NCBI RefSeq assembly: GCF_965641715.1
Contig: NZ_OZ282453.1
DNA: 64,000 nt
From: Escherichia coli
GTDB taxonomy: Bacteria > Pseudomonadota > Gammaproteobacteria > Enterobacterales > Enterobacteriaceae
Reading direction: 5' to 3' (one strand)
The translations under genes and the position numbers were made by a program. Below, piece by piece: positions 727 through 47,606 of the stretch (positions are counted from its first letter, which is position 1; each line of letters begins with the position of its first letter). Under the pieces are notes generated by a model, which did no database searches, was not told the origin of the DNA, and saw only the letters and a list, made by a program, of their open reading frames with translations.

Positions 727-1437
727 TTACTGCCCCAAACTACTGCAATCCTGGTTTGGGTAAAATTTCCCTGCCGTATCGGGTGCTAATACTTTGGTCG
801 GCGCACCGGTATCCGGATTAGCCTCAAGCGTAAAGTGACCTTCTACTGATAGTAACACCGGTTTTTCACTGTGGCCGCGCGCAGCCAGGTAGCCACGCTC
901 CAGCTCTGCGTTATTCGCTACCATGAAACGTTTTCCGGTCGCGCAATCAGTGAAGGTCGCCGCATCAGCCATATAAAAATACATGCCCCGCAGGGTCATC
1001 GGCGTCATGGGTAAACTGGATTGTGCCGGTTCCAGCGTATAGTTGAACTGCGATTCAATCGGATTGCCTTCACGATCGAGCATCTCCAGCGCATCGCCTT
1101 TCGCCCGATAATATGACTTTTCACCTTTGCTGTCGGTTAATACCAGCTTGTCAGCGGTTCGCGCCCATGTACCGTAGGAAGCGAAGGAGGAAGGTTCTTC
1201 ACGAGCATCGAGATAACGCTCATTCATCACCCATGTTCCGTCTTTTTCGAGGAACAGAGAGGTTTCGATTCCTTCGCAATCGGCACACGGCAGCACGCCG
1301 CGCCAACTTTGCGGCATCGGTTTCAGTTCGGCTGCCTGCGCCGGAGAAAGCGTATCGACTTCGGCCCGATTATTACAACCCATCAGAGTAAAGAGGCTGA
1401 TTACAGCCATCGCTGTCACTATCGCTTTTTTCACCAT
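727..1437 (-). CDS. nlpE: Outer-membrane lipoprotein NlpE (CutF), Cpx envelope-stress sensor
   Basis: 236 aa ORF with lipobox LMGC and CxxC motif; matches NlpE. Confidence 0.93.
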   Translation of the reverse strand: MVKKAIVTAMAVISLFTLMGCNNRAEVDTLSPAQAAELKPMPQSWRGVLPCADCEGIETSLFLEKDGTWVMNERYLDAREEPSSFASYGTWARTADKLVLTDSKGEKSYYRAKGDALEMLDREGNPIESQFNYTLEPAQSSLPMTPMTLRGMYFYMADAATFTDCATGKRFMVANNAELERGYLAARGHSEKPVLLSVEGHFTLEANPDTGAPTKVLAPDTAGKFYPNQDCSSLGQ

Positions 1438-11617: not shown

Positions 11618-12214
11618 TCAGGACGCAAGTCCCAGTGCGCGTTTGACAGGCCCAAAGCTGCGACGATGATGTTCAGTCGCGCCATATTCAGCCAGTTTTT
11701 CCAGATGAAAAGCGGTTGGATACCCTTTGTGTTGGGCAAAACCATATTGCGGGAAAACAATATCCAGCGCCGCCATTTCGGCGTCACGCGTCACTTTCGC
11801 CAGGATAGACGCGGCACTGATTTCCGGTACGCGGCTATCGCCTTTCACCACAGCCATCGCAGGCATCGGTAATTTCGGGCAGCGGTTACCATCAATCAAC
11901 ACATATTCCGGCGCAATATGCAGCCCAGCGACGGCACGCTGCATCGCCAGCATGGTCGCATGAAGAATGTTCAGCTCGTCGATTTCGTGGGGTTCCGCGC
12001 GGCCCAGACTCCAGCTCAACGCTTTCTCTTTGATCTCTTCATAGAGCGCCAGACGGCGTTTTTCGCTCAGCTTTTTGGAATCATTCAGCCCGGCAATCGG
12101 GCGCGCCGGGTCAAGGATCACCGCAGCGGTGACGACCGCGCCAACTAACGGCCCGCGTCCGACTTCATCCACACCCGCAACCAGCTGCGTGTGCGGATAG
12201 ACAAATTCGATCAT
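11618..12214 (-). CDS. rnhB: Ribonuclease HII
   Basis: 198 aa ORF ([23 protein letters not shown]...). Confidence 0.96.
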
Positions 12215-33419: not shown

Positions 33420-34844
33420 TTACTGCATTAACAGGTAGATGGTGCTGTCGCCGCGCTGAATGTTCAGTGCCAGCACAGACGGTTTGCTGTCGAGAACTTT
33501 ACGCAGTTCAGCGATGTTTTTCACTGCCTGCTGGTTCGCGCCAATAATCACATCACCTTTCTTCAGGCCGATCTGCGCAGCCGGAGTGCCCGTTTTCACG
33601 TTGTTCACTACCACGCCCTGATCTTTGCCTTTGTTGCTCATCTCAGCACCTTCAATGCCGTTGAAGATGGAGCTGGAATCAACCTGATTCTGGCTGCTCT
33701 GCTGCAGTTCCAGATTCACGTTGACCTGCTTACCGTCGCGCAGCAAGCCCAGGGTCAGTTTGCTGCCCACCGGCATAGTACCCACCTGAGCACGCAGTGC
33801 GGCAAAGCTGCTGATCGGCTTACCGTTCAGTGAGGTGATCACATCACCCGCTTTAATGCCCGCTTTTGCAGCGGAGGAGTTAGGCAGAACCTGGCTTACG
33901 AAAGCACCGCGCTGGGCGTCAACTTTCATCGCTTTCGCCAGTTCGGAGTTCAGCTCAGTCCCCATAATACCCAGCTCACCGCGTTTCACCTGGCCGTATT
34001 CCACCATCTGCGAGGTCAGGTTTTTCACCATGTTGCTCGGGATAGCAAAACCGATACCGATGTTGCCGCCGTCCGGTGCGAGGATCGCGGTGTTGATACC
34101 GATCAGTTCGCCGTTCAGGTTAACCAGCGCACCACCGGAGTTACCACGGTTGATCGCTGCATCGGTCTGGATGAAGTTTTCGTAGTTTTCGGCATTCAGG
34201 CCGCTACGCCCCAGCGCAGAGACAATCCCGGAAGTTACCGTCTCGCCCAAACCAAACGGGTTACCAATCGCTACGGTGTAATCACCCACGCGCAGTGCAT
34301 CAGAATCCGCCATCTTAATTGCGGTCAAGTTTTTCGGGTTCTGGATTTGGATCAGCGCGATATCAGAGCGCGGATCTTTGCCAACCATCTTCGCGTCGAA
34401 CTTACGGCCATCGCTCAGTTGAACTTTAATGACCGTCGCGTTATCAACAACGTGGTTGTTGGTGACGACATAGCCTTTATCGGCATCAATGATGACGCCG
34501 GAACCCAGCGCCATGAATTTCTGTTGCTGGCCGCCACCATTACCGCCCTGGCCACCCTGGCAGAACGGAGAGCTCTGGAACGGAGAACCTTCCTGGCAGA
34601 ACGGAGAATCATCACCGAAGAACTGCTGGAAATTACGCGGCATACGCGGCGTATTAACGGTTGTGCTACCTTCTACGTTAATGCTGACCACTGAAGGCAT
34701 CACCTTTTCGAGCATCGGTGCAAGGCTTGGCATCTGCTGGGCTGTCGTTGCTGAAGAAGTCTCAGCCGCCGTTGCAGAGAGCGGAGATAACGCCAAACCT
34801 AAACTCAGAGCCAGTGCACTCAGTGCTAATGTGGTTTTTTTCAT
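33420..34844 (-). CDS. degP: Periplasmic serine endoprotease/chaperone DegP (HtrA)
   Basis: 474 aa ORF, signal peptide, trypsin-like protease domain (GNSGG) and two PDZ domains. Confidence 0.97.
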   Translation of the reverse strand: MKKTTLALSALALSLGLALSPLSATAAETSSATTAQQMPSLAPMLEKVMPSVVSINVEGSTTVNTPRMPRNFQQFFGDDSPFCQEGSPFQSSPFCQGGQGGNGGGQQQKFMALGSGVIIDADKGYVVTNNHVVDNATVIKVQLSDGRKFDAKMVGKDPRSDIALIQIQNPKNLTAIKMADSDALRVGDYTVAIGNPFGLGETVTSGIVSALGRSGLNAENYENFIQTDAAINRGNSGGALVNLNGELIGINTAILAPDGGNIGIGFAIPSNMVKNLTSQMVEYGQVKRGELGIMGTELNSELAKAMKVDAQRGAFVSQVLPNSSAAKAGIKAGDVITSLNGKPISSFAALRAQVGTMPVGSKLTLGLLRDGKQVNVNLELQQSSQNQVDSSSIFNGIEGAEMSNKGKDQGVVVNNVKTGTPAAQIGLKKGDVIIGANQQAVKNIAELRKVLDSKPSVLALNIQRGDSTIYLLMQ

Positions 34845-34885
34845 GTATTTCAGTCTCGATTAACAGATAACGCAAAATTGCTGTG

Positions 34886-34920
34886 TTCTTCAGATTCGTT
34901 TTATAGCGCGAAGTTCCGAA
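34886..34920 (-). promoter_or_regulatory. Sigma-E-type promoter of degP
   Basis: minus strand reads cgGAACTTcgcgctataaaacgaaTCTGAagaaca: -35 GAACTT, 16-nt spacer, -10 TCTGA, matching the sigma-E consensus. Confidence 0.75.
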
Positions 34921-34973
34921 CTAAAGTTTCTGCAAAAGGTAAAAATTTATTGTTCGTCTTTACAAAAGCCTGG

Positions 34974-36491
34974 TTATTGTTCTACGGCCATCAGACGTCG
35001 GTATTCATCCCACGCATAGAGGTCGGTCATACCGCTGATATAATCCTGCAGCAGGCGGCAACGGTAATAATATTCCCATAGCGGAAACTCAGGAGAATCT
35101 GACGGTAATTTACTGACAGCCTCGACATAGGCCAGCCGATGGCGCGTCGAGAGTTTGTGGAATAAGCGCGATTCAATAGGGAAACGTTTCACCCGTTCTT
35201 TTTCTACCAGTTCAGTAAAGTCTGATAACGACAGGCTTAATAAAGGACGATAAATCTCTAATAATCCGCTAATGACCCGATAGCCCTGCAATTCAAGCTG
35301 CTCGACATCTGGATGGCTAAACACATGTTTTACAGCGACATTTTTATATAGCTTAAGAAGATCGCTGCATTCGCTGGCATCTTCCAATAATGCATGATTA
35401 AACGTTCCGGCGAAAATCGCAGGCAGATTATCAATAAATCGTTGTGCCGCGTAGGGTACCAGTTTATTTAGGGTGTTTACCCGTAAATACATAAAAAACT
35501 GATCTTCCGTACTGCGGCTTAAACTATTTGAGCGTGATTTTTCCCAGGCATTTTCAACCACCAGCGAAAAGAGCGAACCTTTCTCATGCTGGCCCCACGC
35601 CTCGTGCAAATGATGATAAAGCTGCTCAACGGTAAATATTCTTTTCTCTACCGCATCTTCAAGATCTGCCACACAATAGGAGATGTCGTCGGCAGCTTCC
35701 ATAATCCACGTTAATGGAAAACGACTGTAAAGCGCCAAATTAAGTTCTTTACGCAACCGGGCAATATAGGCTTCTTCAGAAAGATAATAACCCGGCTTTT
35801 TCATTAAATAGTGATGTGTCTCAGGCGTTTCGCCACGCCACCACGCTGGACGGGTATATTTTAAAATACCGCCAACCTGCGCCCAGGTGAGATTCATCCG
35901 CATCAATGTATGCACCAGACGAATGCCTTGTGCATTCCCCTCAAAATGACATAAGTCCTGACGAATCTTGCGCCGCAGCTCGTTAAGCGGTTCTTCCCCG
36001 TCCCGTAAACGTAGTGCCGCCACGCTGCAGCGATCGTCAGTCAGAGGCTGGCTTTCGGCATCTTCCGGGTGCAAACGTTGGCGAAACCAGTCATTTATCG
36101 CCGCTTCGCCAAAATGACCAAACGGCGGATTGCCGATATCGTGCATCAGGCATGACATCTCAACAATGCTTTCAAAAGGTCCGGTCAGTTCATCCAGGCC
36201 GTATGCTTCCAGTAATTTAAGCTCTTTCAGACGGCTTAAAATTTCTTTGGCGATGTAGCGCCCCACCTGCTGGACTTCCATCGAGTGGGTAAGACGCGTG
36301 CGCACGGCGGCATTGCGCTCCAGTGGAAAAACCTGGGTCTTTTGTTGCAGACGACGAATTGCCGGAGAGTTGATGATACGCCCGCGATCGCTCTCGAAGA
36401 TCCGCAGGATCTCATGTTCGGTTTTAACGCCCTGCGGTGAACGGTAACGACGATGCCAGTTTATTTTTTTTCGGAAATCAATCTGTGCCAT
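34974..36491 (-). CDS. dgt: dGTP triphosphohydrolase
   Basis: 505 aa ORF, HD-domain dGTPase. Confidence 0.96.
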
Positions 36492-45877: not shown

Positions 45878-47387
45878 TTAGAAACGGAAGGTTGCGGTTG
45901 CAACGACCTGACGTTCTGCGCCCCAGAAGCAGCCATAAGTGTTAAAGCAGCTGGCGACGTATTCACGATCGAACAGGTTGTTGACATGCAGCGCCACGTT
46001 GGAGCCCGCCATGCCGACTCGCGCCAGATCATAACGCACTAACGCATCCACGACCGTATAACTTCCCACTTTAAAGGAGTTAGCCGGATCACCATAGCTG
46101 GAGCCAGTATAACGACCACCGGTGCCCAGCGTCAGACCTGAAAGCGGACCGTCAAAGAAGGTATAGTCAGCCCACAGCGAAGCCATGTGTTTTGGCACCT
46201 GTGCCGGCGTATTGCCTTTATAGGTAGTATCGGTGGTGTATTCCGCATCGGTGTAAGTATAAGAACCGACTACGTTAACACTCGCCGACAGCGCCGCTTT
46301 CGCTTCGATTTCTACGCCACGTGCGCGGATCTCGCCACCTTCAACCGAGAAGAAGGAACCCTCAGGGTCCGCCATCAGGTTGTTGGTTTTAGTGAGATTA
46401 TACACGGCACCAGTAACTACAATCGGACGATCTTCCGGTACATATTTCACGCCGACTTCATACTGCTTACCTTTAGACGGTGCGAAAATATTACCATCCT
46501 TCCCAACTTGCGAAGAAGGTTCAAACGATTCGCTATAGCTGAAGTAAGGTGTTACGCCATTATCAAACAGGTAGTTAACACCACCACGCCAGGTAAACTG
46601 TTTGTCATCGCGTTTATCGGTCGTCGCGGCAACGCGGTTAAGAGATTCTTGATCTGCCCAGTCGTAACGACCGCCCAGGGTGACCAGCACTTTATCCCAC
46701 TGCGCCTGATCCTGAACATAAACGCCCGTTTGTTTCTGCTTATTCAGAATGCGGTAAGGGCCGGAGTTTGCCGGATCTTTGGCATTGAAGTCGAAATCGG
46801 TATTCACCGGATTGTACAGATCGAGCAGCGGTACGGAGTCGTCGTAACCAAACCAAGCGTTGATGTCATTACGCATACGCATAAAGTCGACACCGGTCAG
46901 CAGGGTGTGGTCGATATCGCCAGTGGCAAACTTGCTCTGCAACTGGGTATCAACGGAGAAGTTTTGCAGCTTCTCATCATCAACGACGTATTTACGTGCC
47001 AGATAATGGCCTTTATCCGCTGGCGCTAATGCCGCACACTGTTTGCTGTAAGCATTCGCCGGATCGGAGCAGACGCCGTAACCATAAACGCTGTTTTGCG
47101 AGGTTTTGTTTTCAGCAAAGCGCAGGTTCTGACGCACAGTAAAGGTGTCGTTAAATTCGTGATCGAAGCTGTAGCCCACCATCTTCTCATTACGAGAATA
47201 GGTGTTGTTCTTCGCCCCTTCGTTAAAGTCTGTCGGCAGACGCTTACCGTTCGGCAGCGGCTCAACGGTTCCCTCTTTCGGCAACCAGCCGTAATAACCC
47301 GTTTCCGATGCCGCTAACCGCTGTGGCTACTACAACTGCGATTTTACGCAGTGAGTGTTTTGGCTGAGCAGTTTTGGAACGCGCCAT
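45878..47387 (-). pseudogene. fhuA: fhuA (tonA) ferrichrome TonB-dependent receptor, inactivated by an out-of-frame internal deletion
   Basis: ATG at 47387 encodes MARSKTAQPKHSLRKIAVVVATAVSG (FhuA signal-peptide start) then shifts frame and stops after about 39 codons; a different frame from ~47284 down to 45878 encodes the C-terminal ~468 residues of the FhuA barrel ending ATFRF; junction near 47308. Confidence 0.85.
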
Positions 47388-47452: not shown

Positions 47453-47561
47453 ATATTCGAAACGCTGGCGGGTTCGCAAGCGGTACGCAATCTGAGCGTT
47501 CCTGAAGGGTTAATAAACAACCAGATGAAAAGAAAGGGTTAATACTTTGGGTGGGATGTTA

Positions 47562-47592
47562 TTTTACCGGATGGCAACTCGCCATCCGGTAT
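47562..47592. repeat. REP-like palindrome downstream of mrcB
   Basis: accggatggc aactc gccatccggt inverted repeat. Confidence 0.45.
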
Positions 47593-47606
47593 TTCACGCT
47601 TAGATG

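Follow-up and report, generated by a model that had tools for sequence, protein, structure and literature searches.

The sigma-E-type promoter of degP in the dgt-degP spacer of Escherichia coli compared with its counterparts in Enterobacteriaceae

The GAACTT/TCTGA consensus of sigma-E promoters is said to have been first derived from the degP and rpoH P3 promoters, in work attributed to Lipinska in 1988 and to Erickson and Gross in 1989. Sigma-E dependence of the degP start of E. coli K-12 was reportedly established by Erickson and Gross in 1989 and by Rhodius in 2006, the latter using 5' RACE with and without rpoE. In Rhodius et al. (2006, PMC1312014), the rules drawn from 28 mapped sigma-E promoters are a -35 element of GGAACTT, a -10 element of TCAAA and a purine start, with a strongly preferred spacer of 16 nt and a discriminator of 5 or 6 nt; the same study counts DegP in the conserved core sigma-E regulon.

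The htrA gene of Salmonella has three starts, with leaders of 40, 47 and 215 (or 449) nt. The start with the 40-nt leader was at first seen only under stress, and that with the 47-nt UTR has been reported to be constitutive at a low level. A fourU RNA thermometer lying within the 40-nt leader has been characterised in Salmonella (Choi et al. 2017, PMC5602114). In E. coli, two known CpxR boxes of degP have been listed (Zhao et al. 2022, PMC9600279, Table S1).

The window, by which is meant the whole 64-kb stretch of DNA analysed here, belongs to the E. coli chromosome and is collinear with one at approximately 96 to 98% identity. The gene dgt and the protease gene degP are separated by a spacer of 129 nt, and the span picked out by the sequence-only reading (34845..34973) is exactly this intergenic spacer, as bounded by the two ORFs (Table 1). 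A 401-nt stretch round the spacer is present at at least 95% identity in 5424 of 5426 complete E. coli genomes, annotated with dgt and degP. The eight neighbours that had been named in the window (nlpE, lpxB, lpxA, fabZ, lpxD, skp, bamA and rseP) are all intact as ORFs, with lengths as expected.

Elsewhere in the window, fhuA (minus strand) carries an internal deletion of 734 nt, a length not divisible by three, directly downstream of the signal-peptide codons; its junction is at approximately 47307/47308. What remains is an ORF of 468 aa (45878..47284, minus strand) from which the 5' part is missing. When a 100-nt probe spanning the junction was compared with 5426 complete E. coli genomes, none had a full-length match. 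Such a deletion is in keeping with a phage-resistance mutant of the tonA type or with an allele of laboratory origin. At 47549..47600 in the window fhuA adjoins mrcB, whereas in strain SK1144 the two genes are separated by a fimbrial operon of four genes, for fimbrial proteins, a chaperone and an usher.

Table 1. Features of the degP promoter region and neighbouring genes, in window coordinates
Feature	Position	Strand	Remarks
degP (htrA) CDS	33420..34844	-	ORF, 474 aa
HtrA 5' UTR fourU-type RNA thermometer (Rfam RF02700), match	34839..34884	-	cmscan
Main degP start (+1, A)	34884	-	K-12 180844; 40-nt 5' UTR
Sigma-E -10 element TCTGA	34890..34894	-	5/5 to classical consensus
Second degP start (G)	34891	-	K-12 180837; 47-nt UTR; stationary phase only
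Sigma-E spacer CGCGCTATAAAACGAA	34895..34910	-	16 nt; contains conserved TATAAA
TATAAA, candidate -10 of overlapping sigma-70/sigma-S-type promoter	34905..34900	-	equivalent to Salmonella htrAP2
Sigma-E -35 element GGAACTT	34911..34917	-	7/7 to consensus
Putative CpxR-binding region GTAAA-GACGA-ACAAT-AAATT-TTTAC	34939..34963	-	-79..-55 from +1
CpxR box 'degP1' GTAAAGACGAACAAT	34963..34949	-	-79..-65; listed in Zhao et al. 2022 (PMC9600279)
dgt	34974..36491	-	ORF, 505 aa
Weak far-upstream start (G)	35059	-	K-12 180669; 215-nt UTR; inside 3' end of dgt
TATTAT, -10-like hexamer	35072..35067	-	8 nt before start 35059
Distal CpxR box 'degP2' GTAAATTACCGTCAG	35099..35113	-	inside 3' end of dgt; Zhao et al. 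2022 (PMC9600279)
nlpE	727..1437		intact ORF
lpxB	12211..13359		intact ORF
lpxA	13359..14147		intact ORF
fabZ	within 14151..14699		intact ORF
lpxD	14711..15736		intact ORF
skp	15740..16225		intact ORF
bamA	16347..18779		intact ORF
rseP	within 18809..20206		intact ORF

On the minus strand, 34917..34890 reads GGAACTT CGCGCTATAAAACGAA TCTGA, bearing out the earlier report of GGAACTT and TCTGA 16 nt apart upstream of degP. TCTGA lies 46 to 50 nt and GGAACTT 67 to 73 nt upstream of the degP ATG, and the placing of the motif 'about 50 nt upstream' of the gene fits the -10 element. The match to the sigma-E consensus that had been claimed holds for GGAACTT at every position and for TCTGA when this is set against the classical consensus, but only in part against the newer TCAAA, with which it agrees at three of five positions (T, C and the last A). 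The geometry follows all of the sigma-E rules, with a 16-nt spacer (15 to 19 nt allowed), a 5-nt discriminator and a purine start. The degP promoter shares GGAACTT, the 16-nt spacer, TC..A, the 5-nt discriminator and the purine start with rpoH P3 and other promoters of the sigma-E regulon; it differs from them in having TCTGA, not the majority TCAAA, as its -10 element and a listed CpxR box upstream.

The motif GGAACTT-N15-17-TCTGA has a single match in the 64 kb, both strands included. Short bipartite motifs do arise by chance, and a scan of the whole window with a relaxed sigma-E consensus gave 4 sites against 3.96 expected, so that a fortuitous match with no promoter function has to be weighed here. 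However, the exact motif is expected only 0.02 times in the window (mean of 100 dinucleotide-preserving shuffles, 2 of which held one match). It is also on the correct strand, in the correct place and in register for two mapped starts, and across Enterobacteriaceae its bases are kept where those of the flanks vary. A fortuitous match can be practically discounted on these grounds.

The relaxed scan revealed no excess of sigma-E sites in the 64-kb window and gave no site directly upstream of rseP, bamA, skp or lpxD. Lacking both enrichment and those sites, it is uninformative about other sigma-E promoters in the window. The view that regulatory motifs can be read directly from this DNA therefore stands for the perfect degP site and does not extend beyond it, since the relaxed scan gave no excess. 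A relaxed sigma-E-like sequence, GGAACTA-N16-TCGAA, is found on the minus strand at 19688..19715, inside rseP and approximately 870 nt upstream of bamA; it is indistinguishable from chance.

In K-12, a degP start at 180844 was mapped in exponential and glutamine cultures by 5'-triphosphate-enriched RACE-seq, and the upstream sequence printed for it ends ...GAATCTGAAGAACA (Cho et al. 2014, PMC3923258, Table S4). Cappable-seq independently gives the same start, with a high relative read score of 41.6 (Ettwiller et al. 2016, PMC4782308). Round the motif, 211 nt of K-12 MG1655 agree with the window at all but two adjacent spacer bases, and because of this near-identity the K-12 start maps transfer base for base. 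As the K-12 degP ATG is at 180884, start 180844 corresponds to window position 34884, where the base is an A. Counted from the end of TCTGA it is the sixth base, which leaves a 5-nt discriminator and agrees with the sigma-E start rules. Mapped starts had been named beforehand as the test of the -10 element, and the K-12 start is compatible with it. The sigma-E assignment given by Cho et al. (2014, PMC3923258) was taken from RegulonDB, without sigma-E ChIP data. Dependence of the 34884 start on sigma-E is probable and is carried over from the K-12 literature.

Conservation of the promoter was followed with a DegP scan of species-representative genomes, which returned 80 Enterobacteriaceae loci, 79 of them usable, from genera including Escherichia, Citrobacter, Salmonella, Enterobacter, Klebsiella, Kluyvera, Kosakonia and Buttiauxella. 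The pattern [G]GAACTT-N15-17-TC..A was found at the same place in 64 of the 79 loci, and GGAACTA-N16-TCTGA was found in 12 further loci, which belong to the Enterobacter, Lelliottia and Huaxiibacter group. In the three Buttiauxella loci the -35 element is kept and the -10 element is shifted or altered. The spacer is 16 nt in nearly all of the matching orthologous promoters and 17 nt in a few.

Column conservation was calculated from 77 distinct sequences (76 from the 79 loci, plus the window). In the -35 element GAACT is invariant, the first G is present in 92% and the last T in 84% (A in the Enterobacter group). In the -10 element T, C and T each reach 99%, G 86% and A 100%, the variants being TCTTA and TCTCA. 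Averaged over its columns, the -35 element reaches a conservation of 0.967 and the -10 element one of 0.964, compared with 0.51 for the discriminator and 0.51 to 0.64 for the non-motif flanks in the spacer.

Comparison within E. coli covered a 74-nt stretch round the promoter: 4020 of 5424 complete genomes are identical to the window, and the other 1404, which include K-12 and its derivatives, differ at one to three positions. In the two most divergent E. coli alleles sampled, the changes fall outside both sigma-E elements. Spacer positions 2 and 3 (34909-34908) form a two-base polymorphism, being GC in the window (CGCG) and AG in K-12 (CAGG). In Salmonella, Citrobacter and the rest of the aligned genera GC is likewise the commonest pair at these positions, and K-12, with CAGG, is one of the smaller group of E. 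coli genomes not identical to the window. The window thus shares with K-12 degPp the locus, both sigma-E elements, their spacing, the start base, the 5' UTR and the CpxR box; the difference lies in spacer positions 2 and 3.

With a probability of approximately 95%, 34917..34890 is the sigma-E (RpoE, sigma-24) dependent promoter of degP/htrA in the E. coli chromosome. Four observations made here carry this reading: the presence of the motif, the lack of a second copy in the window, the exact register with two K-12 start maps and the strong conservation across the family.

The sigma-E spacer is more conserved than sigma-E itself needs, which points to the use of this DNA by other factors as well. 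It contains the sequence TATAAA, whose mean conservation over the 77 sequences (92%) is far above that of the non-motif intergenic flanks. A second K-12 start, 180837 (28 reads, condition S; Cho et al. 2014, PMC3923258, Table S4), falls in the window at a G located 9 nt after TATAAA. The same study detected sigma-38 binding by ChIP at the degP promoter region (Table S6). Start 180837 was not seen in the Cappable-seq map (Ettwiller et al. 2016, PMC4782308). Its offset from the gene equals that of Salmonella htrAP2 (47 nt). The conservation of TATAAA, together with this stationary-phase start, suggests that a second promoter is nested in the sigma-E promoter.

The same evidence could be taken further, to the view that the stretch is mainly a CpxR-activated sigma-70/sigma-S promoter with TATAAA as its -10 element and its start at 34891, the sigma-E-like motif being minor. 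The low-level constitutive start of Salmonella with the same 47-nt UTR would agree with this, as would the Cpx response of degP, which is induced 26- to 32-fold in cpxA24 and NlpE-overproducing cells. However, start 180844 appears in both K-12 maps and is the sole nearby start, with a high score, in the Cappable-seq map. Furthermore, TATAAA has no -35-like hexamer 16 to 18 nt upstream of it (the hexamers there are AACTTT, ACTTTA and AAACTT), a sigma-70 consensus scan of 34500..35300 found no match on the degP strand, and TATAAA is less conserved than either sigma-E element. A mainly sigma-70/sigma-S promoter is thus very unlikely. Since sigma-E and sigma-70/sigma-S promoters can coexist, such a promoter complements the sigma-E promoter and does not replace it.

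A weak third start lies much further upstream, inside dgt; its K-12 equivalent, 180669, has a Cappable-seq score of 1.8 (Ettwiller et al. 2016, PMC4782308). It is preceded by a -10-like hexamer, the midpoint of the distal CpxR box lies approximately 47 nt before it, and the region 35059..35072 is identical to K-12. The offset of this start (215 nt) is that of Salmonella htrAP1. Salmonella enterica htrA thus has a sigma-E-type motif, a 40-nt thermometer leader and start offsets of 40, 47 and 215 nt that are matched in the window or in K-12. In a limited literature search, the upstream E. coli degP starts were nowhere described as promoters. Starts 34891 and 35059 are consistent with nested extra promoters. 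That E. coli degP is a multi-promoter gene in the manner of Salmonella, with a sigma-S/sigma-70 promoter inside the sigma-E spacer (CTATAAA, start 34891), a weak start in dgt and a nesting conserved across Enterobacteriaceae, is a proposal for which the odds are about even.

The listed CpxR boxes lie upstream of the sigma-E elements. The strict box GTAAA-N5-GTAAA, for which a search had been proposed, has no match in the intergenic spacer at two or fewer mismatches. The listed box 'degP1', GTAAAGACGAACAAT, has three mismatches to it. This proximal box sits in a regularly spaced block, GTAAA-N5-ACAAT-N5-TTTAC, in which the two outer pentamers are inverted repeats of one another. All 77 sequences have GTAAA and TTTAC without change, and CAATA is nearly invariant, making the block the best conserved part of the intergenic spacer, above the sigma-E elements. 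Binding of CpxR to the degP spacer is probable here, on the strength of the established literature. The distal box 'degP2', GTAAATTACCGTCAG, is identical in K-12. Its exact sequence was found in only 2 of 79 species and it has no conservation outside Escherichia, so no claim is made for it as a family-wide element.

The leader of the main transcript was recognised by cmscan as the HtrA thermometer of Rfam (RF02700), with 77 bits where the gathering threshold is 52 (E = 6e-17) and a match to the full model (1-46 of 46) that begins exactly at the mapped +1. In the thermometer a UUUU stretch pairs with GAGA of the Shine-Dalgarno sequence. Where the Salmonella htrA leader has U in GAGAUUG, that of E. 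coli has C, and its stem therefore contains an A-C mismatch in place of the A-U pair of Salmonella. The predicted fold of the E. coli degP leader alone is weak (-3 kcal/mol, z = +0.94), with no stability beyond that of shuffled controls. Because of this z value it is the Rfam model, and not the folding energy, that supports the thermometer call. With the mismatch and a fold no stabler than the shuffles, the E. coli degP leader is to be regarded as a putative thermometer.

If the stretch works as a sigma-E promoter, envelope stress would lead to cleavage of RseA by DegS and RseP, releasing sigma-E and raising degP transcription. RNA polymerase with sigma-E would recognise GGAACTT and TCTGA, 16 nt apart, and would begin transcription at the A at 34884, giving an mRNA with a 40-nt leader. 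Phosphorylated CpxR on the GTAAA...TTTAC block may provide a second stress input. The leader may in addition act as a short fourU RNA thermometer, partly masking the ribosome site at low temperature.

The degP sigma-E promoter is already known and lies in a well-studied control region, as the sequence-only reading acknowledged in offering it as an internal control. It is a valid positive control, a mapped promoter of an alternative sigma factor having been identified from raw sequence, to the base. Biologically it brings nothing new, as this is among the founding sigma-E promoters and publications already cover both the CpxR input to it and the Salmonella thermometer. The modest addition is the suggestion, from the K-12 starts and the family-wide conservation, of a layout with three starts in E. 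coli as in Salmonella, with a second -10-like element nested in the sigma-E spacer.
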